Positions 21,598 through 60,814 of a stretch of 64,000 nt of DNA are shown here, one piece after another. The notes below the pieces were generated by a model. The model made no database searches and was not told where the DNA came from. It was given only the letters and a program-made list of their open reading frames with translations. Origin of the DNA: Octopus vulgaris. Its lineage: Eukaryota. How positions within the stretch are numbered: position 1 is the first letter of the stretch; every line of letters begins with the position of its first letter. The DNA is taken from the NCBI GenBank assembly GCA_951406725.2, contig OX597821.1, positions 118,172,001 to 118,236,000 of the forward strand, given 5' to 3'. A program made the position numbers and the translations under genes.

Positions 21598-24500
21598 TAC
21601 TAACACCTAGAATTTCAGTATTTCTGCCACAGAGCTTACATCTACATCATCAATGACCTTAGTGCTTATGCATACTACGCTGCTAACACCACAACCTTAA
21701 CATGCCTAAATGCTTGAATGTTGTCAAGTCGGAAGAGAGATCAGATGAAAAATGCCTAAAAAACGATCACCACCACAATAACCATCTTCTTTTCAGGCGC
21801 TGAATTGCTCCCCTCCCCCCCACATCTCCTTCGCAGTTTTCAGAGTTGGCACTGACAATGTTGGTACATTGAAAGGTAGGTCTAGTGAGATTGTAGAGAT
21901 GCTTGAGAGAAGACAGGTTGATGTATGCTGCATACAAGAGGTAAGATGGAGAGGTGCTTCAGCTAGGGTCCTCACAGGCAAGGCACATAGGTATAAAGTC
22001 TTCTGGCAAGGTAACATGGATGGTGTAGGGGGTGTAGGCATTCTCCTTGCGGAGAAATGGGTGGATAAGGTCATAGAGGTTGTCAAGGTTTGCGATAGAG
22101 TGCTTAAGCTCAGGTTAGTCCTACAGAGTGGCACAGCTACGATTATCTCCGCCTATGCCCCACAAGCGGGACTACCAAATGATCAGAAGGACCAATTTTA
22201 TGATACTCTTCTACAGGCTACCTCAAAGACTAGTGGCAAGGACCTCATCTTTGTGGGTGGAGACTTTAATGGGCATGTCGGGCGGAAATCGGGTATCTTC
22301 ACTGGGGTACACGGTGGCCATGGTATTGGCACCAGAAATGATGAGGGAACTATATTACTGGAATTCTGTGAAGCATGTAACCTTGTAATCTGCAACACTA
22401 ACTTCAGGAAGCCTGACTGCCACCTTATAACCTATCAGTCAGGAGACTCCGCTAGCCAAATAGACTTCATTCTCACCAGACAGCGGGATGCAGGGTCGCT
22501 CTTAAATACAAAGACCCTCCCAGGTGAAGAATGTATCCCTCAGCATAGGCTAATCATCAGTGAATTTAAGCTAGAGGCCAGAAGGACTCCAAGAAACATA
22601 CGAATCCAGAAAAGAAGGATTTGGAGGCTAAAGAACCCTTCACATGGTCAGAGATTTAGGGACATCCTCATCAAGAAATTTGATAAGAGGGAGGAGGAGC
22701 TTCAGACGTCGGACATAGAAGGTAGCTGGGAATTCCTATGGGACAGCTTGCTGAGTGCCACAGACCAAGTCTGTGGATGGTGCAAAGTCCCTTCCAGACC
22801 TAGAGTTACGTGGTGGTGGAATAATGCAGTAGACAAAGCCATTAGTGCAAAGAGACAGGCTTGGAAAGCCTGGAGGGATGGGGGCAGCAGGGAATTGTAC
22901 CAGGTAGCCAAAAGGGAGGCTGGGCAGCAGGTATACATAGCCAAAGATGTAGCAGAAAAGAAGAAGTTTGCCAATGTCCTGCAACGTAAGGACCAAAGAG
23001 CTGAGGTATTTCGGATTGCCAGACAGTGTGTGAGAGAAAATAGTGATGTTACAGGAGAGAAATGTGTCCGCATGGATGATGGGGCACTTGCTTTTAATGT
23101 TGGTGAAAAGAAAGAGGCTTGGAGAAGCCATTATGAAAGACTGCTGAATGAGGAGAATGAATGGGAGGAGGAGAGCCTGCCAAATGTTGACCCAGTAGAG
23201 GGACCAGCTATCCGAATAGACAGCTCCCTTGTAGTTAAGGCAATTAAGGATATGGAAACAGGTAAAGCCCCCAGCCCATCAAAAATCCCTGCTGGGATGC
23301 TTAAAACAGCTGGCTATGTGGGCTATGGCCTAGTCACCTGCATTGTAAACCAGGTAGTTCACAATGGAGTCATACCCAATGACTGGCGTAGCAGCACCAT
23401 AGTCAACTGCTACAAGGGTAAGGGTGATGCTCTAGATAGAAATAACTACAGGGGTATTAAACTGTTGGATCAGGTGATGAAGGTCACAGAGAGGGTCATA
23501 ACCCATCTCATTAGGAAGAGAATTTGCTTAGATGAGATACAGTTCGGTTTTGTGCCGGGTAGAAGCACCACTGATGCTATATTCCTGGTCCGACAACCTA
23601 GCTAAAGATAAACCCCTCTACATAGCTTTTGTGGACTTGGAGAAAGCCTTTGACAGGGTTCCCCGATCCCTTATCTGGTGGTCAATGCGGAAACTGGAAA
23701 TTGACGAATGGCTAATAAGGGCTGTACAGGCTCTATACAGAGAGGCTGTCAGCAAGGTTAGGATTGGCAACAAATATAATGAAGAATGCTGGGTAGAAGT
23801 AGGTGTACACCAAGGCTCAGCCCTCAGTCCCCTTTTATTCATCATAGTCCTCCAGGCACTGTAGGAAAGGTGTAGGTAGAAACTCCATAAGATGCACCCA
23901 ATGTAAGCTATGGATGCATAAGAGGTGCAGCAACATCAAAGGGAAATTAACTGATAAGATAGCTTTCATGTGCGGCAGATGCACAGGGACAATAGACACC
24001 ACAGACACTCAGAAAACAGATTCCATCACACTCCAGGGGGAGAAACTAGAAGTACTTGATAGTTTCCGCTACCTGGGTGACCAAGAGGTGGATGCTCAGA
24101 GAGTATCACCACTAGAATACGAATAGCCTGGGCAAAGTTCAGAAAGCTCCTACCCCTACTGGCGACAAAGGGTCTCTCGCTTAGAGTGAAAGGTAGATTG
24201 TATGATGCATGTGTGCGAACTGCCATGCTTCACGGTAGTGAAACATGGGCTGTGACTGCAGAGGACATGCGTAGACTTGAAAGAAATGAAGCCTGCATGA
24301 TCCGCTGGATCCGTGTAATGTCAGCGTGCACGCACGACAGAGTGTAAGCACCCTGAGAGAAATGCTGGACATAAGAAGCATCAGATGTGGTGTGCAAGAG
24401 CGACGCTTGCGATGGTATGGTCATGTACTGCGGATGGATGAGGAGAGATGTGTGAAGAAGTGCCACTCCCAAACAGTTGAAGGTATCAGGGGGAGAGGTA

Positions 24501-27500
24501 GACCCAGGAAGACATGGGATGAGGTAGTCAAGCATGACCTCAGAGCGTTGGGCCTCACTGAGGCAATGGCGAAGGACCAAGATCTCTGGAGATATGCTGT
24601 GACTGCAAAGAACCTGGCTGCTTCCTGCACCAGTTCTGCATAGCCCCCTTCCCATTCAAAGTACCCTGGATCCCGGAACGTCTCGCTGTGCTTGAGGAAC
24701 ATGAACATCGAAATAAATATCAATGGAAATAGTAGTTGTGTTACCTGTGCCGTTGGCACATAAAAAGCACCATCCGAACGTGGCCGTTGCCAGCGCCGCC
24801 TTGGCTGGCTTCCGTGCCAGTGGCACGTTAAAAGCTCCAACCGATCGTGGCTGATGCCAGACCCCTCTGGCACCTGTGCAGGTGGCACGTAAAAAGCACC
24901 CACTACACTCGCGGAGTGGTTGGCGTTAGGAAGGGCATCCAGCTGTAGAAACTCTGCCAGATCAGACTGGAGCCTGGTGCAGACCCTGGCTTCCTAGACC
25001 CCGGTCAAACCGTCCAACCCGTGCTAGCCTGGAAAACGGACGTTAAACGATGATGATGATGATGATGATATGTGTATATATATATATATATATATTCTAT
25101 GTATATATACGCAAGGTGTTTGGGCTAAATTTGACAGTTTACATAAAAGCGAAAGAAAACAATATCCCATTCACAAAATAAAAGTATTTGCAAAGAATGA
25201 AAAAGTATCAACCAGATTAAGGTTGGGAGATAACTTTACTCGAAGTAGCCCCACCTCTCCCTCAGCTTCCACCACAACCTCAGAATCACTCCAAAAATCG
25301 GCACATGCATTCTCTGGGAAGGTTTTGAACACCTCCTCGACCTTGGCTGGCAGCTCAGCACTTGGAAGGTCTCGCTCAGCTGCACCCCACACATTGTAAT
25401 CTATGGGGAATAAGGAGGCCAAAAATAAGGGGATGCTGAAGTTTTAGAATCTCTTCAACAATCACTTCTGACACTTTCTGGAGCTGAATTCTGCGGCCAC
25501 ACATATGGCCTTCCAGCAGCAATCCTTTCCAGCCAGTAATAGTCTACAATCCCCATCAGCTTCACATAGCCATCCGAATTGAGCCCAAGGCCCTGTTCAA
25601 GAATGCTGGATGAATTCTGGAGTGTGGACACAGTCAGGACACCTACTGTCTCCCCCCCCACACACACACTCCTGCTGGCCACAGCTTTGTAGTCTCCATT
25701 GCAGCTGTCCATGTCATGTCTTACAAGTTTTACAGTGTTAACAAAGCATTTTGAGCAGCTGTCACAGCCGTTCAAGAATTTGGACCTGGGGATCTCCATT
25801 TCCAGCGACTTCGAGGGCCACCTCCCAGTGGTGTCGGGCGTCAACGAAGAACCTTTGACTACAACAAGACGACCAAAGTTTTTTTTTTTCCAAGGTCTGG
25901 GGTCTCCTGCCCCTAAGCCCTTGCCCATCACCTAATCACCCTTACCTGTCTTGTTGCTTAACAACAACAACAACAGCAGCAGTCACAATGACAGCATTTT
26001 GATAACCAGGGCGAATCATCAGGATACAGGTTAACTCTTTTCCAATATTCAGATCGCTTCCAGTCTTCCATGTCAGCTAACATTTTCTAAACTAGAACTT
26101 TAATCTTTATTGCTCTGCAATGCTGTTCCCTGTTCCCCAATCCATCAAGCTGCTTCTGAAAAAAAAACCCCCCAAAACCTAAAAAATCATCAAATTTAAC
26201 CCAACATATACATATTAGGTGGGTGATAATATTTTCAGTAGAGACATTGCAACTGTATGATTGTTCCCATGCTTCAATACTTTATATGTACATATATTTA
26301 CTCTATTGCTGATATTTATCAATGGTTGCTCCTGTTGTTTGGAGCACCATTTTCAATCATGTATGTATGTGTGTATGTATGTATGTATGTATGTATGTAT
26401 GTGTGTGTGTGTGTGTGTATGTGTGTATGTATGTGTGTGTGTATGTGTGTGTGTGTGTATGTGTGTATGTATGTATGCATGTATGTATGTGCGTATATGT
26501 GTGTGTGTGTGTATGTATGTATATATGTATGTGTGTTTGTAAATAAAAGGTGATGAATGGAGAATAGCAGTTTAATCCATGATACATATGTTTCAATAGC
26601 ATGGTATTTTATTCTTAACTAGCAGCATAGCCCGGCATTGCCCGGGTATGTAAGAGCCCCTGGAGCAGACATGATGCTCACTGTGAATTAAAAACAAATT
26701 CCTGCCAATTTGTGAAAGATATTGTCGAAAATATGTCATCTTGAATTTGAACGCGATTTCCCAAAATGGCATGATTTTATCGATTTTTTCTGATGGTAAG
26801 GTATTACATGGAAAACTAACATCAGAATTAAGTTTCTTAGGATAACATTAAGCTTCACAATGAGTTTGGTGAAAATTGATTGCAAGTTGCGAAAACTACA
26901 ACAGAAAATGTGTTGCATATAAAAAGCTTAGATTCTCGACCCCATGTCGAATTTATCGATTATTTTCAGAACTGGGGGAACTTTTCAAAATTTTCGCTGC
27001 GTTAGTTTTGAATTATGACATTGGGCTATGTGTGTGTCAAGTTTCATCAGAATCGGTTGAAAGCCGTGGTCAGGGTGAGGGTACAACCTGACAGACACAC
27101 AGACACACAGACAGACAAACTGCCGTTTATATAGAGAGAGATTCATACATTACATTACACCAAATCACTAGTCATCTCATCCAGCTATTAGAATAATATA
27201 TAAATAGAATAATATATATATATATGTGTATATTTGTTTGTTTACTTAATTAATTCTTGAATTTTTTCAATAGATGAAATTCCATGGCTTGTATTTGGTA
27301 ATCGCCATTATATTCGAAAGATGACACTGGATGGCTTGAATTACCAATTGATAGCTCAAGGATTACGTGAACTAATTTCCCTTGATTTTGACTACCAGGA
27401 GCAAAAACTCTACTTTTTTGATAAATGGACACGGAACATTCAAACAATTTTCATCAATGGCTCCAATCAGGAAAAGCTCTTTAAAGACCAGCGTTATGGT

Positions 27501-30500
27501 CCATCTATCTTTGCTGTTGATTGGGTTGGCCGGTAAGAAATATTTGTAGCTATTGATAAGCATGAAATGTTTTGGCACCATCTATTTTGACTTATTTGAT
27601 ATCAAACATTTTAATGTCTCTCTTGTTCATCTTTTCCTCTATGTTCTTGTTCTAACTTTCTCCTTGTTCTCTCTCTCTCTGTCTGTCTGACTCTCTCTCT
27701 CTCTCTCTGTCTGTCTCTGTCTCTCTGTCTGTCTCTCTGTCTCTCTCTCTCCGTTTATGTGTGTGAGCATAATTCTCTTTATATGGATGAGACGGTTAGT
27801 GTATATACACACCATGTTCACTTAGTAATTACAATGTCTCCCTCTCTTTCTCTCTCTCTCTCTCTCTCTATCTATCTAGCTAGCTAGCTAGTTACCTGCT
27901 AATCTATCTATCTGTCTGTTTGTCTGTCTGTATGCATGTATGCATGTATGCATGAGTGAGTGTATATTCCCTTTATCTTGACACATGCACATTGGCTGTA
28001 AACAAAAGTTATTCTTAATACAGTGTTAAGTTTAAGAATAAAGACATTCCAGCAATGACTGTCCCATCTATTTTCTTTTGTAACCATTGTTGAGGCAAGT
28101 GAGAATCAGAATCAAAATCAAAATCAAAATCGATCAACATCAATGGAAATTGTAGCGGTGGCATGTAAGAGAACCATCCGAACATGGCTGTTGCCAGCGC
28201 TGCCCTGACTGACCTCCATGTCGATGGCACGTAAAAAGCACCATCCGATTGTGGCCATTGCCAGCCCCACCTGGCCTCCATGTCAGTGTTATGTAAAAAG
28301 CACCATCCGATCGTGGCCGTTTGCCAGCCTCGTCTGGCACATAAAAAGCACCCACTACACTCTTGGAGTGAATGGCGTTAGGAAGGGCATCCAGCCGTAG
28401 AAACATTGCCAGATCAGACTGGGCCTGGTGCAGCATTCTGGCTTCCCATACCCCAGTTGAACCGTCCAACCCATGCTAGTATGGAAAGCGCACACTAAAC
28501 GATGATGATGATGATGATGATGTGCGCCCAAGATAACATTGGCATGGTTGTATGATTAAGAAGCTTGCTGCCCAACCATGATGTCTTGAGTTCAATCTCA
28601 GTGCATGGCACCTAAGGCAAGTATCTACTATTATAGCCCTGGGCTAACAAAAGTCTTGTGAGTGAATTTGGTAGGCAGAAAATGAAAGAAAACCATTGTA
28701 CAGTAATTTTCCTTGGTTTTCGAACAACTCTGATCATGAATAAATCATGCTTTATGTAGATAGATAGATAGATATAGATATATCATCATCATCATCATCA
28801 TCATCATTTAACGTCCGTTTTCCATGCTAGCATAGGTTGGATGGTTCGACTGGGGTCTGGTAAGCCATGGAGGCTGCACTGGGCTCTAGTCTGATTTGGC
28901 AGTGTTTCTACAGCTGGATGCCCTTCCTAACACCAACCACTCCGTGAATGTAGTGGGTGTTTTTTATGTGCCACTGGCACAGGAGCCAGAGCAGGCTGGC
29001 AAACGGCCACGATCGGTTGGTGCTTTTATGTGTCACCGACACAGACACCATTCAGGCAACGCTAGTAACTGTCATGCTCAAACGGTGCTTTTTACCTGTC
29101 ACCAGCAAGGGTGTCTTAACTACAGTTTCCATTTGAATTTTTTTTTTTTTTGATGTTGACGAACTTGACTCAACAGGTCTCCTCAAGAACAGTGGGTCAC
29201 TCTACGATCCAAGGTTAGCACAGCAGGCTGTCCTGCGGGCATGATCTCACTTCATTTGTCGGGTCTTCGGATCCTCAAGAACAGTGAGTCACTCTACGAT
29301 CCAAGGTTAGCACAGCAGGCCGTCCTGTGAGCCCTGAACTCACTTCATTTGTTGGGTCTTCGAAGTCACAGCATATCTCCAGAGGTCTCGGTCTTTTGTC
29401 ATAGCCTCTGTGAGGCTCAAAGTACGAAGGTCATGCTTGACCACTGCATCCCATGTCTTCCTGGGTCTACCTCTACCCTGGATTCCTTCAACAGTTTGGG
29501 AGATATATATAAAGCACAATTTATTCTTGATCAGAGGCGTTTGTAAACCGAGGTACTACTGTATTAAATGAATGTGAGAAAGACAGGAGATAAACTATGA
29601 TTTATTCGTGATCAGAGATGTTCAAGAACTGAGGTTCTACTGTATATATGGATGTGTGTGTGTGTGTGAGCATATGTTTATGTGTGTGTGTGTGAGCATA
29701 TGTTTATGTGTGCTCTTGTATAGATTTTATGTAATGGTTGCAAATAAGAATCATCATCATCATACAAGCAAGGTTGTTTGTTTCAAGCCTTCAGTGAAAA
29801 GCCTGTCTGGAAATGGAGAAAATATAACCTTCCTTGGGAACGGGTGAGGTTAGTGACGGGAGGGGCATCTGGCAGTAGGAGATCTTCCCCAATAAATTAC
29901 ATCCAACCCATGCAAGCATGGAAAAGGGGACGCTACATGATGATAATCAGGATGATCATGATAATCAAGATGGTAACAAGTGATTTTATAAAGATTTGGT
30001 TGCTATTTCTAGCTTTTAAATACATTTTCAAATACAGGTTGTCCTGTAGAAAGCTCCAGTAGTCTTCCACATCATGTGATGTTACATCCCCCTCTGTTTC
30101 ATCAAAAGCTTTGAATAATTGGTCTCTAAGTCTCTGTCCATTTGCAGGATCTTTAAGCTTCCAGACCCTTCTCTTCCATGCTGGTTGTCTTCTGGATGTC
30201 CATTTAGCCCTGATCCCGAAGTTGCTAACTACTAGTCTATATTGTGCGGTACATTCTTCTCTTGGGAAGGTTTTGGCATTTATAAGTAGCCATCTTTCCC
30301 TTTTCCTATATTCTCTTTAAGTGAACATTTTTCTGGTTGAAATACACCGTAAAATGGCGACACAGCAGTCAAAAAATCGTAAAATATTGGGATTTTCATA
30401 GAAAAAAAGCACCTTTTTGATGTAAATAATTTTTCTTCTATGGAAGGAAGAACAAGCCGTCTTCTATCATACTGTCAATTTTGGTCAACTTGCTCCGCAG

Positions 30501-31352
30501 GGTCTCGGAGGAGATAGTGTTAGTTGAAGACTACTAAAACCTGCCATACCCAGACAACTTCAGCTTCATATATATAGAGATTATTTAGCATTTTAATGGA
30601 CTAATAGATACATTCCATTATTTAGAGAAAAAGTATTAGATATATAAAAAAATTATAGTGTACTTCCTTCTAAAAGAAATTTAAATATGTTTGCTAAAAA
30701 TTAAAAGATATCAGGTATTTTTATAAAATCGGGTGTGTATTTCTAAGCAATAATTGTAAATAAGGATAACGAGTAATCTCCCTTCATTCATGTGGGTAAA
30801 TTGTTTCTAAGGATATTATTATGATGAAAATTATGATTTCTTTTACTAGAGAAGTTATATTTATAAAATTTGTGGACACACACACACACACACACACACA
30901 TACACACACACATTCATCATCATCATCATCATCGTTTAACGTCGGCTTTCCATGCTGGCATGTGTTGGATGGTTTGACTGAGGACTGGCAAGCCAGGAGG
31001 CTGCACCAGGATCCAATCTGATTTAGTAAGTTTTCAACAGCTGGATGCCTTTCCTAATGCCAACCACTCTGAGAGTGTAGTGGGTGTACTCTTGGAGTGG
31101 TAAATCATAAATCTGAAAGAGGAGCACACTCTACATTATAGAGCAGAAGAGTATATAGATAAAAATAGTTATGGCTGGTCTACAGGATTACCCTGGGTTT
31201 CACATCCATAAAGCGCTGAGCTTTACAGCATTTCTTCAGACCCTAAAATCCATTGGCCTTAAGCCAACAGGTTTTGGGATCTGAAGAAATGCTGTGAAGT
31301 TAAGCTCTTTATGGACATGAAACCCAGGGTAACCCCCAGGGACTAGCCATAT

Positions 31353-31384
<32 letters not shown>

Positions 31385-34300
31385 TTATTTATTTATCAAT
31401 CTATCTATCAATCTATCTATCTAATAACCTATCTATCTATCTCTTTCTCTCTCTTTCTCTCTTTATGTTTGTCTTTTCTCTCACTTTCTCTTTACCACAC
31501 ACACACACACACACACACAAAATGTGTTTTTTTTTCAATTTCCATTGACGAAATCCCACTCACAAGGCTTTGGTCATCCCAGTGCTTTAATAGAAGACAC
31601 TTGCTTGAGGTGCCATACGGAGGGATTGAACCCAAGACGATACAGTTGGGAAGCAAGTTCTTAACCACTCAGTCATACCAGCTCCTTTTATTTTTGGTCT
31701 GTTTGCTACTCAATTCCCGACTCTTTTCCTTCCACTGCACATGAAATTCTTCTTACTTCATTTCCTATTCTCTTACTAATTGCATCTATTTTAATCCTTT
31801 TCTTTTTTCTCTTTCAGTAAATTATATACGTTTTGGTTGTATATTCGAGCTTTATTCGTCTCAGAGCTGAATGGAACCAGTCGAAGAACACTAGATACCG
31901 ATTTGTTTTATCGCGTTTCTTTCTTAGTCGCCTATCCACCTACAGGGTATGTGTCCCCTTCATGTTTTTAAGCACATTTATTCATGCTAGAAAACTGAAT
32001 GCTTGAGACGTGTGTTAAACCCTACAAATTTGTTATGAATCCGTAAGGTTCTGATCAGATCTGTTGACATTGATCTGGTTTTTGCTTTTTAGGAAATTAT
32101 ATCTACTTTCACACAATGAACACTAAAAATCAATAAGTCAGTAAAACTTTGTGTATCATCTAAGACATTCCAAGTATGACCATTCCATCATTCTCCCCCC
32201 CCCCCAGCATTCCCAATGTAGCCTTTCTTTTTCAGAAAGTGGGATGGGATTTGAGGAGGATTTTGATTGTAATTTTTAGCAGGACAGACAACCCTGTACA
32301 AGTCCGTTCATTATAAAACGGCTGATGAACCCTTTTAATACCAACCCGGCTGAAACTACCTCTGGATCTGTAGTACAAATATCTTGCTTTCCTAACTTCT
32401 GAATTAAAATCTTGCACCAAATTTAAGTCAGAATTCATGTTCCTAACATTAGCTTAATGATAACGAAGTTATTTTACCAAATTCTTTGTTATATTTAAAA
32501 TGAATTGAAAGAATCACAGAGCATCTCTTATACAAGAATTTGGTAAGAGAAGGGTCAAATATTGTCAGTCGTTGGGTGCCAGCATGACCATGTGATTGAG
32601 AAGTTTGCTTTGCAGTCAAGGGATTCTGGATGCAATCCTTTTCTGTGGAACCCGGAGCAAATAACTTCTACTATAGACTTTGTGTGAGCCAAACCTTGTC
32701 AATGACACTGGATCGGCAGAAACTATGGGAAAGCTGGAAATAATGAATTATGAAACTCGTTAGCACCTCAGGCGAAATGCTTAGCAGCATAACAGAATTT
32801 CTTCTCACTCTTTACGTTCTGAGTTCAGATCCCATTGAGGTCAGCTTGGCCTTTCATCCTTTCTGGATTAATAAAATAAAGTACCAGTCATATACTGGAG
32901 TCAGTGTGACTGCTCCTCATATCTAAGTTTGAACCCTCCAATCAACTGGCATCCATTTTGGGTTAATAAAATAAAGTAGTGGTCAAGAGCTGGAGCCAAT
33001 GTGACTGACTCCTCATTTCTAAGCCTGAATCCGCCAATGGACTGGCATCCCATTCAGGGGAAATGTTGTGCTCTTGGTCACTTATATGCTATGGAAATTG
33101 CGTAACCAGTCTTATCAGTCGTAGGTTTCAAGAAAATCTTGTTTGAAAAATGCAAGAACTGATCAAAGAGATGATATATATATATATTTCAGGTAACTTT
33201 TAGTGGTACAGTTCTATATTTAAGAGATGAGGAATTATGTATATTATTTACATTATTTACATTTGATGGATATTTGTCCTCATCTTGTTTGTTGTTAACA
33301 CAACATTTCGGCTGATGTACCTTCCAGCTGGATGAGGACAAATATCCATCAAATGTAAATAATGTAACTTTTAGTGGCTGTCCACTCTTTAGCAAGTCCA
33401 GTTCTCTGCTTTGAGAACTTAATACCTCAGTATGCAAGAATTGTAGGTGTTTTCCTCCCTTCTCATCCCCTCTTCAAGAATTCTGGAAACCCTAGAAAAG
33501 CAGTTGACATCACCCTAAAAATTCTGTCATTAATTTTGATACCATTAATAATAATCGGCTTCACCAGAAAGTAAATTATTTATATCTCTTCTGGAAGTGT
33601 GGTGAAGCTGGGGAGGAATATGAAGTCAGTCCTGGCTGCGAATAAATTCAGAAACTGGAGAGTTGGTGCTAAATGTTCAACTGACATCTTCATGCACAAT
33701 GAGTTATAATAGAAGTTTATTGACAGGAAGGGACAGAAACCAGTTCACAGGTTGCAGATCATCCAGTTCTTAGTACCAAGCCCAGGGTACCTAACTCACA
33801 ACAGCCTTGTTCACTTAGCCAGAAAATTTACTGATTAGTTTGTGGTTAGCTCAAAGTACTGAGCTTCAATTTTCCATCATCATCATCATCATCATTATTA
33901 TATTCCTTATTAGGGTGATGAATTAGCAAAATTGTTAGATAATTAGGAAGAATGTCTTGGGATATATGTTCTAGCTTGCTACACTCAGAGTTCCAGAGCC
34001 ACCAAGTTCAACTTTACCTTTCGGTCCCTCTTAGATAGTTAAAAATCAAGTACTGGCATCAATATAGTCTAATAACAGGTGGAGAGCTGGCAGGAAAAGT
34101 ACCAGTTGCATACTGGGGGTCAATCTAATTGACTGCCCCACCTCCCCCAAAATTTCAGGCCTTGTGCCTAGAGTAGAAAAGACTATAATCAACCTGCACC
34201 CTGCCCTTAAAAACGGCTGGTCTTGGACCAACGTTTGAAACTGCTATGCTCATCATTTTCCTTACCATTTTTTTATCAATTTCATTTTCGTTATTCTCTT

Positions 34301-34613
34301 CCTCATCACTTTGATAAATACAATTAATCATTCTTTTTAAAGGTACTTGTACTTTATCGATATTCCCTCGAAAGCATGGATAGGAAGGATTGGCATGGAT
34401 GGCTCAAACTATGAACGTTTGATCATAGATGGTCTCGGCTTACCAACTGGTTTAACTATTGATTTCGAGAGTCAACGGATGTGGTGGGCAGATGCCCACT
34501 TTGATGCGATCGAGTAAGTATTCTTTGTTTGGAGTTTGCATTTCTGTAAAATATTTATTTATTCCGTTACCATGAACAAATTTAGCAAACAGGAACTGTA
34601 TGGAAGCCCATTG

Positions 34614-34652
<39 letters not shown>

Positions 34653-37600
34653 GGGCCTTAGAGTTAATTTAGCAAAAACCAAAGTCTTAGTAAATAGTAA
34701 AGCAGACAAATCACAAATCCCCTCGGGTAGATGGCCCTGTTCAATACGTAGAAGAGGTGTGAGTAGAAATCCCATAAGATGTACTCAGTGTAAGCTATGG
34801 ACACATAAGAGGTGCAACAATATCAGAGGAAGGTTAACAGGGAACCTATTTTTTTTTTGTGTGTGTGTTTGGAAGGTGCACAAGTGCAGTAAACACTAGA
34901 AATGCACAGAAAATCCTGTCCATTAGATGCCTGAGGGGATACCTAGAATTACTTTATAGCTTCTGTTACCTGGGTAACCAAGTCAGTAGCAAAGTTGGAT
35001 GCTCTGAGAAGATAGCTGCTAGACTAAGAATAGGCTGGGCAAAGTTCAGACAGTTTCTACTTTTGTTGGTAACTAAAAGCCTCCCCCCCCCCAGGGTGAA
35101 AGGAAGACTGTATGATGTCTGTGTATGAACAGCTATACTATACTGCAATGGAACATGTGCTGTGACCACTGAGGACATGTGAAGGCTTGGGAAAATGAGG
35201 CTAAATGTGACAGACAGATGTGTGTGTGTACATTGAGGTTACTTAATGTAGTGGTCAGATGTGGAGCATCACCATAGGTCAAATGCAGGATGATACAGCA
35301 TAATAACAACATTGAAGAGGAAAAGAATAATATTCACAAATTTATTTGCTGGCAGTGTTTTGTAACACAGACATAGGAGTGATCGCCAATAGTAACGGTG
35401 CATTGGTAGCTCACTGGTGGTTGTTAGTGTGGAGGCTGTGCGTTTTGTTGATGGAGAGGAAGAAAGGATTACGTTGTCCCTTTCCATTTGGCTGATGCTG
35501 TTGCTCCTGGTTAAGGGCTGACACGACTAGCAATGTGAGCTCTCTATTGGTCAGCTGAAGCAAAGATGGTGAGAGAAAGATAATCTCAGTTATATAGGGT
35601 ATGACCTGGAGGTAGGTGAGACCTAAAACAAAGATCCTAAGGGGTCAGATGTTTCACATTAATCTCTCAGCATGGAGATAAAGCACAAAGGAGTCAGATA
35701 GTCGTCTGATGAGCAATGAGTGTGTAGTTTCGGTTTCAAATCTCAGTTAGGCAGGACTAAGTGAGCTCTGACACTAGTGTGCTTTGCTGGATGGGCAATG
35801 GTCAGTATGCATGTATGATAGTGTCTTGAGAGAAAAATTGGGCATAAGAGGCATCAGGTGTGGTGTGCAAGAGAGACGACTGCATTGGTATGGTCGTGGG
35901 ATGTGTGTGGATGTGGACAGCTGTGTGAAGAAGTTGGAGGGGGAAGCTGTGGAAGAGAGAGACCCAGGAAGACATGGGATGCGTTGGTGAAGCATGATCT
36001 TCTTCAAGTGTTGGGCCCCACATAGGTGATGACAAGTGACTGCAACCTATTGGTGATATTCTCTGCTTGAGAAAACTTATTAAACCAAGTGAAGTTCTAG
36101 TCATGTCCAGTGCTAGTGTCATGTCATTGGCGCCCATGCCAGTGGTATGGGAAAGAACTCATGCCAGTGGCATGCAGAAAGTGACCATTTCACTCTTGGA
36201 ATGGCTGTCGTTAGGAAGGGCATCCAGCTGTAGAAACCATGTCAAATCAGACTGGAATTTGGTGGAGCTCTCTGGCTTACCAATTCCAGTCAAACCATCA
36301 AATCCATGCCAGCATAGAAGGTAGATGTTAAACGATGATGATGAAGATTATATATATGTGTATGTATATATATATATATATCACACATCATCTTCACATA
36401 CACACTCAAGTTTGCACACACACTTTATCCAGATCCCTTCCGTTGAAAGATTCCTTTCAGTTAATTTGACATGTGAAACCCTTAATCCAAACACATTTCT
36501 TTTTTCTCTCTCAATACTACCCCCTTCTCAACTGACGGGGTTTTGTCTTGCAAGGTTCTTGGTGACCCTGTCGGTGCTGGTGCCACGTAAAATGCACCCA
36601 GTACACTCTGTCAAGTGGCTGGAGTTAGAAAGGACATTCAGCTTTAAAAACCACGTGTAAACTCCCAGCCTCTCGAGCTCCTGTCAAACTATCCAATCCA
36701 TGCCAGCATGGAAAACAAATGTTAAATGATGTCTGAGTTCAAATTCTACCAAAGGTCGACTTTGCCCTTCATCCTTTTGGAGTCGATAAATTAAGTACCA
36801 GTTATGTGCTGGGGTCGATGTAATTGACTCTACCTTTCCCTCAAATTTCAGGCCTTGCACCTATTGTAGAAAGGATTATTATTATTATTATTTTTATTGT
36901 TATTGGGTCAATGAGGTGTGTTCACAAAATCTTTAACACAGCAGACAAAATGCTTTGTGGCATTTCTTCTGGCTCCTTACATTCTGAGTTCAAATTCTAA
37001 TGAGGTTGGTTTCATCTTTCATTTGCAGTTTCGGTAATAATAAGTAGCAGGTGGTGGGGTGCCAACGTAATTCGTTAACTGTCTTCTCTAAAATTGATGG
37101 CCTTCTTCCATGACTGATTGTCATTATACAACAGAACAAATTCCCACATGGAGCAGCCATTTGTTATTAATCCTTTTGCTTTTGTAGATATGCCAGTTTG
37201 GATGGTACTCACAGACAAACGGTAATGAAAGAGAATGTACCATTCGTTCACTCACTTGCAGTGTTTGAAGACTGGATCTACTGGACAGACTCGAGCCGCC
37301 TGAGCATAGAAAAAGCACACAAATTCACTGGACGGAACCATACTATTCTACGGAATATGACTCACCAACCAAGTATCCTTATTGTGTTTCACTCATTACG
37401 ACAAAAGCAATGTTAGTGTCTTACGGTATTTCTATGTTGCATATTAATATGTTTTACCTTTCTTTTATCAGACTTGTTTCAGTCGTTAGACTGTGGCCAC
37501 GCTGGGGCATCACCTTGAAGAATTTTTAGTTGATTGAATTGATCCTGGAACCTATTATTTTGAAGCCTGATACTTATACTGTCGGTATCTTTTACGGGGA

Positions 37601-39806
37601 CATAAACACACCATCACTGGTTGTCAACTAATGGTGGGGGATAAACAGTCAAAGAAACACATAGATATACATACATACCACAGGCTTCATTTGGTTTCCA
37701 CAGGCCAAATCCACTCACAAGGTTTGGGTCATACTGAGGCTATAGTAGAAGACACTTATACAAGGTGCCACACAGTGGAGCTGAACCTGGAACCATGTGG
37801 CTTGGAAGTAAACTTCTTACCACAGCCACACCTACACCTATATGCTTAAAATATATCATTCATAGCTTTTTATACTTTGAACTCCAGCATTCATATTTTT
37901 TGCAATGTAAGTAACGTACACTTCTCACTGGTATCAACAAAGCTTCTTAAAGGGAAGGGGAAAATTTTGAAAAATTGTCTTGGTCCAATGGTAAAACGTC
38001 TGTCGTGTTTACAAAAAGAATTTAAATCTCACAGATACCCTTGACCTTTTTCTATCCATGGGAACGTTTAATCCATTATTTAAATGTTATTGTTTATTGC
38101 ATTATCTACAGCAAGTTCTACCATCAAAAATGAAATACTTGTAACATTTATGGTATATATACACACACACATATATGCTAGTATATATTTATACACACAT
38201 ACACACACATGCACGCACACACACGCACACACACACTTCGTTTCTTCTTGTTTTCATTCAAATCCACTCTCAAAACTTTAACCAACCCAAGTCTATTGTA
38301 GAAGATACTTGCCCAAGTTACCGAATGTCCCATGCAGAGGGATTGAACTGAAGAACCATACTTGTTTCTTATACATTTATAACATGTTATTTATATAATT
38401 CCTGTGAATTTACAGTATAAAGTTAACTTTATTAGTTTCTAGGGAAAACATGACTGTCCCCAATGAAAACATACGAACCCACCATTTCCAATGACTTTCA
38501 AGAACCAGCTGTTCTGTTTGTAGTACACCACCCCCAACAGATTGCAGTGAGTCTCTTTGGCAATATCTACTCAATGTCAGGGACTTTTCCCCACTCCCTC
38601 ATAGAATAATAATGCTTATGTAAGCCTATTGTGGAATAATTCCTAAAATTAAATTTCAAATGTCTCTTTATGCTGTAATGTAAATGCAGGCAGGGCCAAA
38701 GCCTTCACAGTGGTACTCAGCCAGGCCACACCCGAAAACCGAAACAAGGAAGAGCTAAAAATAAGTAATAGAAAATAAGGATTTCATCAATTACATAATT
38801 TTGTAGTCACCATTATCATCATCATCATCACCATTTAGCATCTGTTGTCCATGCTGGCATGGGTTGGACGGTTTGACCAGGACCCTAGTCTGATTTGGCA
38901 TGATTTTTATGGCTGAATGCCCTTCCTAACACCAACCACTCCAAGAGTGTAAGGGGTGCTTTTATGTGCCACTGGCACAGGTGCCAGTTTGCATGATACC
39001 AGTATCTGCCATGAATGTGATTTCACTTGCCTTTGATAGGTTTTCTTCTCAAGCACAGCATATTGCCAAAAGTCTTGATCATTTGTCTTGCCTCCATGAG
39101 GTCTTGGTCATTTGTCTTGCCCCCATGAGGTCTTGATCATTTGTCACTGCCTCCATGAGGTCTTGGTCATTTGCCTTGCCTCAATGAATTCTTGGTCATT
39201 TGTCATACCTCCATGAAGTCTTGATAATTTGTCTTGCCTCCATGAGGTCTTGGTCATTTGGCTTGCCTCCATGAAGTCTTGGTCATTTGTCTTGCCTCCA
39301 TGAGGTCTTGGTCTTTTGTCTTGCCTCCATGAATTCTTGCTCATTTTGTCTTACCTCTATAAGTTCTTGGCCATTTGTCTTGTCTCCGTGAGTATGTATA
39401 CAAAATCAACTGAATTAGACCAACAAATTAAAAACCTTGAGCTATTCTCAGTTTACCACCAAATGACAAATTTATCTTTTGTTCTTCCTGGTTAGGTAAA
39501 ATAAATTCCTCCTCAGATAAGGAAAAATTTGTGCAGTGTGGGGGCCCAGCATGTCAAAGAATAGACCCAAAATTTTCCTCTGCATGTATTGTAAAAGTAA
39601 ACTGAAAGAGATCAAGTTAGGGTTTGCACTCCAGCTTCATAAAGACCCTCACCAACAATCACTACCCAAACAGAGTCATGGGTTGGACGGTTGTCACCTG
39701 AGTGGTGCAAAGGTGTCAACCACCAGGAAGAAGGAATCACCAACAAACAGCAGATGCAGTGATGCACTGTTACATCATGTGCCCCCATACCACGACCACC
39801 ACCACC

Positions 39807-39853
<47 letters not shown>

Positions 39854-41591
39854 ACAATTCAAATTTATTGTTTTGTGTCTTATCTTTATATTTCTTATTT
39901 GTTTATTACAGATAAAAATCCTTGCGGATCCAATAATGGTGGATGCAGCCACCATTGCCTCCATTCACCACCAGATGACTATGTCTGTGCATGTCCAGAC
40001 CATTTTCTCTTGGATGCAGATAACAAGACATGCGTTGCCAATTGCAGCACTTCTCAGTTCCGTTGTGGAAAGGGCGATGATCGATGTATTCCATTCTTTT
40101 ATAGATGTGACAAAGATGTCGACTGCCATGATGGCTCCGATGAATTAAACTGTCGTAAGAATATTAAAATAATAATCATAAACAATATTAAAATAATAAT
40201 CATCATCATCCTCAACATCACCATCATCAATATCATCATCATCATCATCATTTAATATCCATTGTCCATGGGTTGGATGGTTTGACCAGGGCTGGTAAGC
40301 TGAGGGACCACACCAGACTCCAGTCTGATTTGGCGTGGTTTCTATGGCTGGATGCCCTTACTAATGCAAACGACTCTGAGAGCATAATAGGTGCCTTTTT
40401 GTGCCACCAGCATGGGTGCCAGTTGTGTGACACCAATATCTGCCACAGCTACGATTTCGCTTGGCTTGATGGGTCTTCTGCTCAAGAGCAGCGTATTGCC
40501 AGGGGTTTCTCTCATTTGTCATTGTCCCTGTGAGGATCAACACTTGAAAGGTGATTTTTACGTGCCACTGGTATCAGCCACATTACCTCCATAAGGCCCA
40601 ATGCACAAAAGGTGCTTCTTATGTGTCACTGGCACGGGTGCCAGTTACAGGACACCAGAATCAGCCATGACCATGATTCCACTCAGCTTGACATGTCTTC
40701 TCCTGCATGACATATCACCAAAGATCTTGGTCACCAGTCATTGCCTCCATGAGGCCCAATGTTTGAAGATCATGCTTCTCCCCATCTTGCAGTGTCTTCC
40801 TGGCTCTATCTCTTTCACAGGTTCTCTCCACAGTTAGAGATCAGCACTTCTTTACACATCTGTCCTCATACATATCACATGACCATACCAGCGCAGTTGT
40901 CTCTCTTGCACATCACATCTGATGCCTCTTCTGCCCAACTTTTCTCTCAAGATTCTTATACCCTGTCGTACATGCACACTGGCATCCAAAAAAGTGTGCT
41001 GCTAGCTTAATTTATTTCCTGCCTACACATGTCCTCAGCAGTCACAATCCATGTTTCACTGCTGTGTAGCATAGCCGTTCACACACAGGCATCATACAGT
41101 TTGCTTCTCACTCTGAGAGAGAGGCCCTTTGTTGCAAACAGAAGTAGGAGGTCTCTGAACTTTGCCCAGCCTATTCTTGTTCTTGCAGCTACACTCTCAG
41201 AGCATCCATCCCCACTACTGACTTGGTCACCTAGGTAACGGAAGCCATGAACTACCTCTAGCTTACCCACCTGGCATTTGTTGGAGTGTATTTTCTGTAC
41301 ATTTTTAGTGTTTATTGTACCTGTGCACCTTCCACACCCAAAAACTATTTTTGCCAATTAACCTTTCTCTGATATTGCTGTACCTCGAATGTGTCCAGAA
41401 CGTGCACCAGGTACATCTTACGGAATTTCTATCTATGCCTTTCCTACAGATTGAGCAGAGCCATCTACCTGAAGAGATCAGTGATTTGTCTGCTTTCCTA
41501 CTTACTAAGACTTTGGTTTTTGCTAGATTAACTGTAAGGTCCTTCGATTCTAGATCTTGCTTCCACACCTGAAATTTCTTCTCTTGTACTG

Positions 41592-41649
<58 letters not shown>

Positions 41650-41885
41650 GTAGTGAAAGAGGGAATGGTGTTTCCATGCACGAAAAAGTATATAGGAAAA
41701 TGTGTTGCTGAAAATGCACTTCAAAAACTCGTGAATGTTTAAAATACATTTATTTACATATGTTGAAACTAGTTTGGTACATATGTAAATAAATGTATTT
41801 TAAACACTCACGAGTTTTTGAAATTTAAGTGCATTTTCAGCAACACATTTTCCTATATATATATGTATATATGTATGTATGTATG

Positions 41886-41958
<73 letters not shown>

Positions 41959-42999
41959 GAAGGACTATGATGAACAAGATGAGGCTGGGGACTGATCCTT
42001 GGTGAACCCCTATTGCACCCTGAATTCATTACTTTGCTCATTGCAAACCTTCACCTTACTGACAGCATCCCTGTACATAGCTTATACAGCAGCCTTGTTC
42101 CCTCTTCATTTCGGGAGCCAATTCCATGGCCACCCTGGAAGACACCTGAGTGTTGCCTAATTTGCCCATTGAAATCACTAGCCACAATGTCACTTGTCTT
42201 TGATGTAACTTGCAAAAGAGTGTCATAAAAGCAGTTCTTTTATTCATTTGGCAGGCCCAGTTGTGGGTCATAGGCAGAGGTGGTTGTTACTGTGCTATTC
42301 TGCAAAACTAGTCTGACCTAAAGTACCCTATCACATACCCTGACTATCTCAATCACCTTATTTACCCATTTCTCTGCTAGAAGTGTGCCAACCCTTCTAC
42401 CCCATTACAGTTGCCCTCCCAGAAGAGTTTATACCTATGCTTTTTGCATGTGAAGAAGCTGGCTGAAGTGACCCTCCACTGGACTTCTTGGCTACAGCAC
42501 GCATCAACGTGTCTCCTTTCAAGCATCTCAACAATCTCGCCAGACTTAGCTTTCAATGTGTCGACATTGACCGTGTTGAGGCTGAGTGAATGTAAAGGCA
42601 GGCAGGGGGTAACGTGGAGAGGGGGAACTGCAGCTTTTGTCATCTGAAAAAAAAATGGTTGTAATGAGCATTTGCCAGCAAACGTGTCATGGCAGTTGTT
42701 CTCTCATTATTCCATCATCCAATTAATTATAATAAGCATAAAACTTATTAAAATAATAATTATAAAGCTTTACATTCATTTTAGCTAACAGTGATTATAT
42801 ATATGTGCATGTGTGTGTGTGTGTGTGCATGTGTGTGTGTGTGTGCATGTGTGTGTGTGTATGTGTGCGTGTGTGTGAATGGGTTTTGTATGTTTTTTAT
42901 GCATGTTTCATTAAATACACCATCGTATTCAAATTTTACATCTTTCTTTAGTTTTTAACGCTTGGAAACAATGGATTCCTTCACAGTCTCTGTACATTG

Positions 43000-46953: not shown

Positions 46954-49900
46954 GGTGTAGCAGGTAAATTGAGACCATTTAAATATTTTTATTATAACTG
47001 GTATAACTTGGAAAAATCAAACCCTGTAAATTTTATGTTTATGCCAATTTATTATGGAGTGTTTAACATTTATTTCAGTTCAATTTGACCTCCATTTCCT
47101 TTCTTTACCAGTTCAGTCTGTTTACAAAATGATGTGCTTTGCCTGAACTACTTCCTCCCTTTTCATTTTATCAAATCCTTGCTTGATCACAGCCTTCAAT
47201 GAAGACACACAAATGTGAGAAGTTGTGTTGGACATTGCTTCAACTGCCATCCATGGCCAATAAACAAGCAGATTCAAGTCTGGTGAGCGAGAAGGCCAGA
47301 TACCTTTAGGGGGGACAAAGATGGGAATTCCTTCTTCAAAACTTCTTGCACTCTTTTTGAAGAATGGACAGGCACAGAGTCCTGTACAAACATGACTCAG
47401 TTTGCATCATAATGCTTTCTAATCCCAAACCAACAAAACTTCTAAGATTTGCAGATATTCTGCTGTGTTGAATTTAAGACCTGCTCCAATAAAATGAGGA
47501 GGCATCAATTTCCCATCACTTGCAAAAGCTCCAAAGACCTTAATGGAAGCCAAATGCTTGCTATGTATAGCTGAGGGAACTTGGGAAGGGTCGTACACTT
47601 TCACTCATGGGTTTTGACGGTTTGCAAATTCATCTACCATGAAATTCTTTTCATCCATGAAGATGCGGACGTCTCTACCACGATATTTTAGATGACTAAG
47701 AAGTTTGGGACAGCTTTCAGCCCGAATGGCTTTGGAGTGGGTAGGGTGTTACAGTGCCTCCTCAAGTATGATCTCATGGAGGTCTTGTCTCACAGCCCTA
47801 GGAATGGTCATTCTACTGATTCCTCAATCTCGAGCCAACTTTGCCATCGATTTTGATGGGTTCACCTCAATCAATCTTTGAAGTCTAATTAAGAAGTGAG
47901 GTGTGCATTTTCAGTTACTACAAGGACTGTGAGGCTTTCTCTGAACATCCTGACTTTTCTTTAAATTGGCTTCAACTCCAGAAACAGTAGATTCAGCATA
48001 GTTTGTTATTCTGACAAACTCCCCAGCACTTTTGCCAGAGTGGAATGATTCGGCAATTACACTTCTACAGTTTAATTCTTTAGTTACATTCGTAGTTTGT
48101 TCAATCTGAAATACAAAACAGAACAAGAGATTATTCCAGCTGCTAATGCTTAAAATATAGACACCAACAAAATCTATACAGTTAGAAATATACCCATTTG
48201 AAATTTGTCCCAATTTACCAGTTACAACCTGTATATATATATATATATATACACACACATATCTATGTGTGTGTGTCTGCTTGACAACCAGTGTCGGTGT
48301 GTTTATGTTCCCATAACTTGGCACTTTGGTAAAAGTGACCGACAGAAGTACTAAGCTTAAAAAGAAGTATTGGGAGTCAATTCATTTGACTAAAATTCTT
48401 CAAGGTGGTGCCCCAGCATGGCCACATTCTAATGACTGAAATAAGTAAATGAGTAAAGAACTCCAGCAAACAGCTCTTCAACACGTGGACCTGGCTGTTT
48501 CATGAGAGCTGCTGCAATGGCTCTGTCTTTCATCCTTTAGCATTCACACCACTCTATTATATTTAATGCTTATTTACTCATATTGTTTTCAACTAATCCT
48601 GCATTATCTTGTGGCTTCGATACCTTGGTGATTGACTGTTTGTTTTAAATTTACATTGAAGTCATGTGGCTTCGTGGTTAGGAGTATTCGGCTTACGATT
48701 GTAAAATCATGAGTTCAATTCTCAGTGACACTTTATTTCGCATTGCTCCAATCCACTCAACTGGCAAAAATAGTTGTATCTGTTTTTCAAAAGGCCAGCC
48801 TTATCACAGACTGTCATGATGAATCTCCCTGAGAACTACACAAAGGGTACACAGTGTCTGTGGAGTGCTCAGCCACATGTACGTTAATTTCACGAGCAGG
48901 CTGTTCTGTTGATCAGGGGTCAACTGGAACCCTTGTCATCGTAACTGACAGAGTGCCATTTACTTCGTAGGGTGAGTGTAAGAAGCCCAATCTGGACAGT
49001 TTGGATCTAAAAGAGGTAGAATATTTTGGCCAGATATGGCCAGTTTGAATACAAAACGGTTAATATGTGCAAGGGAACTCTGCAATGCTGATTCCGTATT
49101 TGTCGCTATAGAAGTTACAACAATAATATTTCCTACATTTTCTATAATATTACTGAAAATGGAAACTTTCTGATTTCTCTGAATCCAGTTGATAGATCCT
49201 GTGGAGTACATGAATTTACCTGTGATAATGGATATTGTATACCTGAGCATGACAAATGTGATTACGAGAACGACTGTTTCGATGGTTCTGATGAAAGTCT
49301 TGAACTGAACTGTGGTAAGTAGACGAAACCTAAACAGGGCAATTTATTTTTTAGCAATTCTCTTTTTTCTTTTTTAACTGTTTGCCTGATGAGTTGTAAT
49401 TGATTAGATGAGATGCAATTACTGTAAAAACCCATGTAATTTATGCACTTTTTTTGCAAAAACAAAAATAAATTTTAGTGGGTATGTAAATTATGTGAGT
49501 CGATCGTTTCCAGAATTTTTTTAGAAATTGTTTTTGCTAAAAAACGATGCACAAATGTAAACATTCTTACTGGAAGTTGACTTATTTAATGTCAGAATAG
49601 GTTTTTACAGAAAATATATAACAAAGTTGATTTTTATTAATGCTGGATGGTATACTGCTTACTTCTTCTGTATAAATTTACTAAAACCATTAAATGGTTA
49701 ACCACTTTTTGAAGTTTGACGTTCATGCTGGTAATCACAGTCTGGGCCATATTTTACTGCATCTAATGCCAAAACATCATAATTCATTCTTGCGCTTGTA
49801 AACTCTCTAACTGAATTTGACTTAGAATTCATACAGAAACCTTCATTTACCTTATACAATGTTTAATGTCGTTTCATATTCACGTTGAATTATTCATAGA

Positions 49901-59338: not shown

Positions 59339-60145
59339 GAAGAGAGTATGAAAAGTCTTGAGCCTCGAAAGAAAAAAACAGAACATGGTACAAGACTTCT
59401 GATGATTTATTTTTCAACATAGTCCCTTTCGATGGATGAACACTTTCTCCAGCAGTGCTGAAGCACCGTTATCCCAGCATAGAAGAACTCTTTTGTTTGA
59501 GACTCCAGAAAACTTCCTACAGTGTCTTTGTCACTGGCAAAATGGCGACCAGCCAGGGCTTTTTTCATTTTCGGGAATAGATAAAAGTCTGAGGTGGGGC
59601 TAAGTCTGGTGAATAAGGCAGATGGGGAACAAGCATGTAACCACAATCTTGAATTGTTGCCATGGCAACTACTGAGGTGTGGGCTGAAGCATTGTCGTGA
59701 TGAAAAAAAGGACTCCTCTGGTGAGCATTCTCTGCCTTTTTTCTTTTATTGTTTCTTGGAGGCATTTCAGTAGCTGAGAATAATACAGCCCTGTCAGGGT
59801 GTGACCTGTTTCAAGGTAATTGATCAACAAGACACCTTGAGAATCCAACAAAACGGACGCCTTGACCTTGCCAGTGGCAGGAATGACCCTGGCCTTCTTT
59901 GGGGTAGGAGAATATGTGTACTTCCACTGCTTTGATTGTTCTTTGGTTTCAGGCTGGTATACTAATAACACAAATATATACTAGTAATACATAATGTATT
60001 ACTAGTATATATTTGTGTAGCACACAGTCTTCGCACATGGGTATGTATTCTTATTATACTCCGTTTTGTGTTGGAATAAATAGACATAATAGAATGTCTA
60101 CCGGCTGATGTATGTCATTTTTGTATCCCCTACATTTTTTCTTTG

Positions 60146-60200
<55 letters not shown>

Positions 60201-60814
60201 ATTAGATGTTGTTTTAACCTCATGAAGGGATGGTTTCATCCAAGGAAATACTGATTCAATACCTAGTATTTGGGGGGAATAAATTTCCTTAAAATAATAG
60301 GTGTATATATAAAAACATATAGCTTATATTCATATAAAAGAAGAAAAAGAAAATGGAGTTTCGGAAGTTAATAATTGTTTATTATTAGCAGTAAATTAAT
60401 CATCATTCCTTACAGCTGTTTCAATTAATACTCAGTAAATTTAAGTAAATATTAAATTCATATAATCTGAGAATAATGTCTTCAGAGGTGAAAAATATAC
60501 CCTTGGATGTTTTGTATGTGTTTATGGATTCCCAATATGGTGATGATAGCGAAGGTGGTGGTGGTAGTGAAGGTGGTGGTGGTAGTGATGATGAATACTT
60601 GTAAGAACCATCTTGAATGCTATAATGAATCCATAAACACATATAAAACATCCAAGGGTATATTTTTTCTCTCTGAAGATATTATTTTCATGTCATATAA
60701 ACTTAATGTTTACTTAAAATTTCTGAGTATTAATTGAAACGGCTGTAAGGGATGATGATTAATTTGGTGTTAATAATAAACAAATCTCCATTTTCTCTTT
60801 TTTCTTTTATACAT

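Follow-up and report, generated by a model that had tools for sequence, protein, structure and literature searches.

A hairpin at positions 31171-31350 of the 64-kb stretch of Octopus vulgaris DNA analysed here (the window) is, in all probability, composed of two truncated copies of a dispersed repeat that carry minimal hammerhead cores and stand head to head, the copies being likely pseudo-LTR (pLTR) ends of a Penelope-like retrotransposon (PLE) and both ribozymes being predicted to be inactive. The observation is explained by known PLE biology. By analogy with described elements, the octopus pair would work like a PLE pLTR remnant, and probably is one. Its components are the following.

31171-31350, no strand: long hairpin formed by two repeat copies (fold -118.2 kcal/mol, z -16.1)
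31100-31259, minus strand: left copy, pseudo-LTR-like, with the 3' end of a dispersed repeat and truncated on its 5' side (contig coverage in four runs)
31255-31365 (right boundary approximate), plus strand: right copy of the same family, with a shorter 3' end, running into (ATCT)n
31253-31267, no strand: head-to-head junction, a short palindrome with a 5-bp stem and a 5-nt loop (from the fold)
31184-31244, minus strand: left type I hammerhead (core 31239-31233, extra base 31232, stem II, GAAA 31201-31198, palindromic stem III)
31276-31336, plus strand: right type I hammerhead (core 31281-31287, extra base 31288, stem III 31322-31330)

The hairpin and its two arms

The fold of 31171-31350 is a single long hairpin whose energy compares with a shuffle mean of -47.4 kcal/mol and was equalled by none of 200 shuffled sequences. 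The initial annotation had described one hairpin with two opposed hammerhead cores, and this is borne out by the fold and by a stem-aware descriptor that recovers both sites (see below). The element was, on the other hand, given as 180 bp; the left copy reaches 31100, so it is larger. Over 88 aligned columns the arms differ at 18 (14 transitions, 3 transversions and 1 gap). They are diverged, as had been noted, and none of the differences falls in the 20 bases quoted at that time (CTGAAGA and GAAACCCAGGGTA), which are intact in both arms. The mismatches of the plus-strand hairpin comprise six G-U and six A-C, counted by eye from the fold, without G-U bias.

The left copy measures about 160 nt and is some 55-70 nt longer than the right one, whose end is masked by a microsatellite. 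At the junction the copies overlap by a microhomology of 3-5 nt (GGC at 31255-31257 versus GCC at 31263-31265), and the two hammerhead cores are spaced by 41 nt.

Hammerhead anatomy

The pattern CTGAAGA...GAAAC is present at 31197-31239 on the minus strand and at 31281-31323 on the plus strand. The 13-mer GAAACCCAGGGTA lies at 31189-31201 (minus) and 31319-31331 (plus), its sole two matches in the window at up to one mismatch. The type I invariant core (C3 U4 G5 A6 N7 G8 A9, G12 A13 A14 A15.1, U16.1 H17) is complete in both arms and the triplet is GUA. Position 17 corresponds to A31331 in the plus arm and to 31189 in the minus arm, with a predicted cut 3' of each.

For the minus arm, the initial annotation had proposed a stem I of 5 bp with one G-U, a stem II helix of 9 bp and the GUA triplet, and the fold agrees with it (pair probabilities 0.94-0.99). 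Its account of the stems and cut sites is right as given and lacks three elements. Three additional pairs at the base of stem II connect it with the core (their probability is 0.94-0.97 in the right arm and 0.06-0.07 in the left), one unpaired extra base follows A9, between 9 and 10.1 (31288 right, 31232 left), and the right-arm stem I contains an A-C mismatch. The right-arm stem II counts 11 bp with one bulge; over both arms, stem II spans 11-12 bp and stem I 4-5 bp, that is a long helix II and a short helix I. The 10.1-11.1 pair is A-U in both arms, with no variant at 31289 or 31318 among the rows listed.

The stem-aware descriptor, which combines the core with a self-complementary stem III region, a stem I and a stable stem II, was searched on both strands and matched exactly two sites in the window; 30 Markov controls gave three hits in total (0.1 per control). 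Other CTGANGA..GAAAC matches in the window, at 13161, 32322, 49288 and 51802, fail this descriptor, and those at 49288 and 51802 overlap LDLa exons. Scans with the motif pattern returned no match in metagenome contigs or prokaryote genomes, and none of six loose matches in viral contigs passes the descriptor. An Rfam search of the whole window found no family at gathering score and no hammerhead model among 12 matches at E up to 10, the sub-threshold matches being generic miRNA-hairpin models only, far under the cut-off. The models may not cover such a variant, with its extra base, long stem II and tiny stem III.

In the right stem I (31276-31336), the 5' strand finds a better partner in the 3' strand of the left stem I (31184-31244) than in its own. 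This cross-arm pairing may be what is expected of a heterodimer or of a past inversion of the centre, or may be due to chance.

A dispersed repeat family in octopod DNA

Relatives were collected as contigs from four of 24 listed public DNA runs, bearing four species labels, aligned to 31093-31356 at 80% likeness. The four runs yielded 730, 444, 856 and 622 matching contigs, of which over half are less than 90% alike, pointing to an old dispersed family. Summed depth ratios amount to about 250-600 times the one-contig depth, a figure that is not a copy number. Contigs span 31100-31246 unbroken and stop at 31100 in all four runs, where the loose ends read (TA)n plus six further family bases. The family thus consists of dispersed copies with a fixed 3' end (31100) and with variable 5' truncation or inner breakpoints. 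Many contigs stop at 31246 and continue into a related but different leader, and another set, the right-arm relatives, matches from 31255 with different letters before it; these differing leaders indicate at least two subfamilies. Both arms of the hairpin share one leader type. A depth step at 31128/31129 in the four runs and two joints at 31127-31130 delimit a further candidate feature.

31100-31128, minus strand: possible Penelope 'tail' of 30-40 bp, in the left copy only (tentative; depth step and joints)

The depth step could also be caused by clipping at nearby private changes. No RT or GIY-YIG ORF linked to the family was found among 131 non-exon frames in the window (131 of 133 candidate frames, the remaining two being scanned separately); the upstream letters of the relatives were covered to 30 nt.

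Head-to-head joints, leading from the left copy (antisense) to the right copy (sense), are also found elsewhere. They represent at least eight distinct breakpoint pairs, three of the eight seen in two runs and each of them carried by one or two contigs per run.

31153/31280, 31210/31301, 31228/31308, 31246/31307: joints, left/right (four of the 15 listed, of 38)
31212/31307, 31213/31297, 31214/31293, 31244/31282: further joints, left/right (from another eight rows)

The three joints with known linker letters (31212-31214) lack the CUGANGA half on both sides. Two further records span both arms, with a centre differing by indels of 4-5 nt. The remaining 11 of the 15 listed joints are four split single copies, four strand switches, two internal skips and one step back. 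The split copies (31157/31337, 31179/31331, 31181/31333 and 31182/31333) were considered as fusions and left uncounted, being single copies split over both arms. The four strand switches, in the left copy, are compatible with head-to-head fusion; their direction is ambiguous and they were not counted either. One of the 15 listed joints is tandem-like and 'goes back', from 31244 to 31160. All joints rest on contigs at 80% likeness, some with sides shorter than 30 nt, and 23 of 46 joint rows were listed; in our reading they derive from the repeat, with assembly artefacts possible. Several of the eight cut through both ribozymes, and the pattern indicates that such fusions arise again and again at shifting positions, without keeping a ribozyme pair.

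Host intron and insertion site

27533-31817, plus strand: intron of the host gene, octopod and LRP2-like (followed by exon 31818-31946)
30915-31087, plus strand: unrelated SINE-like repeat to the left of the insertion (18 other matches in the window, the full-length ones ending at query 169-173)
31351-31450, plus strand: (ATCT)n-type microsatellite at the right end

The window carries 21 LRP2-like exons on the plus strand. A protein search with one exon returned two proteins among 16 candidates, the best being the LRP2-like protein of Octopus sinensis, which most window exons match at more than 90%. The introns of this gene are rich in dispersed and simple repeats. The predicted plus-arm cut in the hairpin, after A31331, lies 487 nt upstream of the twelfth LRP2-like exon of the window (start 31818), in keeping with the distance of about 490 nt announced initially. 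The YWTD-propeller exons flanking the hairpin (27273-27533 and 31818-31946) show 82% and 91% likeness to the Octopus sinensis protein, less than most exons (90-100%), and exon 31818-31946 reads KLYTFW in place of the expected YWTD motif.

Between the SINE-like repeat and the element lies a short inverted filler (31086-31100), a copy of 31065-31081, which looks like a templated fold-back insertion. No target-site duplication (TSD) was detected, 31070-31105 and 31345-31560 sharing no 6-mer or longer.

Core conservation and selection

Among the variant rows listed (40 of 121, divergent copies not being recruited and the core being devoid of CpG), the two 61-nt ribozyme spans contain 21 variable places, all of them outside the 22 invariant positions of the core (P about 0.01). 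Core conservation among paralogs, which the initial annotation had put forward as a check, is therefore seen in these rows. No variant falls on the 38 core and stem III places together (P 0.0002, same rows), and the relatives listed vary at N7, at the extra base and in stems II and I. The extra base 31288 is T in 63-77% of the relatives' depth. As judged from these variants, such a clean core among relatives is compatible with the ribozyme having been under selection in the source elements.

Between the two arms, none of the 11 invariant bases differs (P 0.07, or 0.12-0.14 without estimated CpG columns), and the identity over 19-20 core and stem III bases has a P of 0.005-0.03. The identity of these 19-20 bases exceeds the plain neutral-decay prediction and is the main point against pure decay. 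As an indication of local selection at 31171-31350 it is weak evidence, because the site was picked for its intact cores. Apparent covariation at stem II pairs 10.2/11.2 and 10.3/11.3 was set aside, as C/T and G/A variants at adjacent bases equally fit CpG decay.

Predicted ribozyme activity

In equilibrium modelling the active monomer folds reach -9.9 and -7.1 kcal/mol, 4-5.5 kcal/mol above the MFE, with a stem III probability of at most 0.01. The palindromic stem III forms a self-duplex of eight pairs around an A-A mismatch at -11.6 kcal/mol, versus +0.4 as a monomer hairpin. A weak monomer stem III and a strong self-duplex suggest a dimer-type ribozyme. Ribozymes of this type need a dimer to cut (PMC4209133), so that even a genuine member would probably show little cleavage in a 61-nt monomer assay.

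Enforcing the active hammerhead in contexts of 266 nt and 701 nt carries a penalty of 70-72 kcal/mol, with a pair probability of at most 1e-7. Since the 5' ends face the centre, the antisense arm emerges before the sense arm whichever strand is transcribed, and this order together with the cost of about 70 kcal/mol renders cleavage unlikely at 31171-31350. Both ribozymes are predicted by these models to be inactive here, locked by mutual pairing, and the host pre-mRNA to be left uncut. Given this predicted sequestration, and the other head-to-head joints, which break elsewhere, two initial readings are not supported: that the intact cores indicate activity near exon 12, and that the pair of 180 bp functions as a compact unit.

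Comparison with known systems

Viroid and satellite RNAs carry hammerheads in both polarities, hidden in a rod-like fold. The octopus pair has opposite-polarity hammerheads in a rod-like fold as well, but its layout is an inverted-duplication by-product and not a replicon. Hammerhead core variants have been described, and amniote intronic hammerheads are conserved in RECK and C10orf118 (PMC3088659); the octopus hammerheads are intronic like these and differ by the absence of a stable stem III.

The minimal hammerheads of PLEs are characterized by CUGANGAH, a long helix II, a helix I of 4-5 bp, an unpaired base between 9 and 10.1 and a palindromic helix III, with no activity as monomers and low activity as dimers. 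They occur mostly as solo dispersed copies, and dual motifs are found on opposite strands 100-700 bp apart (PMC4209133). The octopus pair shares with them the core, the extra base, the helix lengths, the palindromic stem III and the opposite-strand arrangement (Cervera and de la Pena 2014, PMC4209133). It departs from them by an A-U at 10.1-11.1 in place of their G-C, although G10.1-C11.1 is highly conserved and not absolute in the consensus, by a bulged helix II of 11-12 bp instead of 7-8 bp, and by cores 41 nt apart instead of 100-700 bp (PMC4209133). The examples given there include mollusc hammerheads, with no cephalopod in the one supplement file searched. The known minimal hammerheads of Penelope type would thus be joined by an octopod family with an A-U closing pair and a long bulged stem II.

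Arkhipova 2013 (PMC3846280) described inverted pLTRs arranged head to head, with a palindrome at the junction and a tail of 31 bp at one end only, and proposed self-priming. Craig 2021 generalised the inverted pLTR layout and noted a microsatellite bias for PLEs, with a (TA)n preference for the octopus Naiad PLEs (PMC8557442). The octopus pair resembles these inverted pLTRs of EN+ PLEs by its head-to-head 5'-truncated copy, its palindrome or microhomology junction and its microsatellite target. In these elements the TSD is often absent or hidden in microsatellites, and a one-sided tail is a feature that the octopus pair may share. It differs by having no ORF body between the repeats (PMC3846280, PMC8557442). 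Octopus Naiads reportedly lack a canonical hammerhead, and the pair therefore probably belongs to another PLE clade. A PLE enzyme has been shown to extend both strands and to start at two internal sites (PMC11167929), and dimer cleavage by hammerheads has been reviewed (PMC6765202). In O. vulgaris, 6.83% of the genome consists of PLEs according to the supplement of PMC13282606, whose main text says nothing of hammerheads.

No motif match to the octopod family was found in the supplements of PMC8557442, PMC13282606 and PMC4209133, files that hold no nucleotide library. Searches of the open literature listed no paper on this family, which may already be in Repbase or in a published octopus library.

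Origin of the pair and rival explanations

Under the PLE interpretation, the element RNA would have been reverse-transcribed at a nicked simple-repeat site, with a stop after about 100-160 nt. Inversion would have occurred at the short leader palindrome, by fold-back of the cDNA on the 3-5 nt microhomology and self-copying; alternatively, two cDNAs, each primed on a different strand, would have annealed at this palindrome. The difference between the 3' ends speaks slightly for priming having occurred twice. The arms diverged afterwards, as shown by the pattern of their differences, which are mostly transitions. In the source element, according to the literature, the ribozyme would dimerise via its palindromic stem III and cut the precursor RNA. 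At the present site, a read-through transcript is predicted to expose the antisense arm first and to trap the sense hammerhead in the duplex, so that the host pre-mRNA would remain uncut.

The family could be suspected to be a non-autonomous non-LTR retrozyme, in which short units bearing a type I hammerhead stand in tandem and pass through a circular RNA, inverted by means of a borrowed PLE enzyme. Non-LTR retrozymes form direct tandem arrays with canonical hammerheads and occur in molluscs (PMC7229834), and they have been argued to derive from PLE pLTRs (bioRxiv 10.64898/2026.07.22.740005). The octopus unit is likewise short, non-coding and PLE-related, with a type I hammerhead, no ORF was found for it in the window, and the single joint that goes back would suit a tandem. 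The pair is, however, inverted, the 3' ends of its relatives enter (TA)n and no next unit, and tandem-like joints are limited to that one of the 15 listed. The extra base and the long stem II are those of the PLE minimal hammerhead and not of the 6-bp/4-bp canonical retrozyme type (PMC7229834, PMC4209133). We consider a retrozyme origin unlikely on these grounds. It is more improbable still that the hairpin itself is mobile, MITE-like or as a secondarily amplified palindrome, and has spread as a fixed two-hammerhead cassette. Its compact inverted repeat and the two other records covering both arms, whose junction is close to that of the hairpin, would agree with such a cassette; most contigs, however, fit one arm and then run into other sequence, the eight other junctions have differing breakpoints, and the outer ends are unequal (31100 versus about 31365) and lack a TSD in the flanks compared above.

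Co-option by the host may also be envisaged, either of the duplex in the intron, which might serve as substrate for ADAR or give rise to small RNAs, or of an occasionally freed plus-strand ribozyme that would modulate splicing or stability of the LRP2-like pre-mRNA. Coleoids display strong A-to-I editing, the plus-arm ribozyme is in the host sense at 487 nt from an exon, and both cores are intact despite an arm divergence of about 20%, as measured by the P of 0.005-0.03 over 19-20 bases. This identity loses its weight when restricted to the 11 invariant bases (P 0.07, or 0.12-0.14 without estimated CpG columns) at a site picked for intact cores, and the plus-strand mismatches show no G-U bias. 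The 64-kb window moreover contains 1060 inverted pairs, and the 70 kcal/mol penalty weighs on any freed ribozyme. Co-option appears very doubtful. If the pair is, as we favour, a by-product of PLE insertion, opposed hammerhead hairpins arise repeatedly in this way and call for caution when genomes are scanned; short junctions of this head-to-head type, being numerous, could help to separate self-priming from double priming in PLE insertion.

A possible intron at the cleavage triplet

31113-31191, minus strand: possible 79-nt element intron whose GT is the GU of the triplet (tentative; splice matrix scores)

A 79-nt pseudo-LTR intron might use the GUA triplet as its 5' splice site, splicing and dimer self-cleavage being then mutually exclusive, which would explain the retention of introns in Penelope; we regard this as a rather unlikely scenario. 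Splicing would yield an ORF start, with an ATG in stem II (31209), and dimer self-cleavage would yield the retrotransposition template. With a splice-site matrix built from 20 host introns, the acceptor-like site ending at 31113 obtains 8.8 bits, in the top 1% of 7778 AG sites, and the GT of the cleavage triplet scores 0.0 bits as a donor, below all 20 host donors. The ATG at 31209 is followed by six codons up to the GT, in phase with an open tail frame after the acceptor. Against the intron, two of the three tail frames are open over the 13 bases present in the window, and no spliced family copy was seen. An overlap of intron and hammerhead has already been reported in D. virilis, at the other end of helix I (PMC4209133). 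Should the triplet be a splice donor, the finding would gain in importance, as intron retention in PLEs is unexplained.

Other repeats in the window

A second head-to-head inverted repeat, of an unrelated family, is located at 60375-60783, with 157-nt arms (88%). These arms contain CTGAAGA, a 56-nt AT-rich spacer, GAAAC, a palindromic stem III region and GTA, and they fail the stem filters. By analogy, this repeat is possibly another PLE remnant, resembling the 'half core' with a long spacer that octopus Naiads are noted to have. A decayed LINE, which we take to be RTE-like, occupies 21782-24655 with an APE endonuclease domain and RT-like frames, and further fragments lie near 34576-35238 and 41079-42703. 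The window further includes a Mariner-type transposase remnant (PF01359) on the minus strand at 59410-59980 and a tandem array with a 29-nt period (family D14) at 39070-39391.
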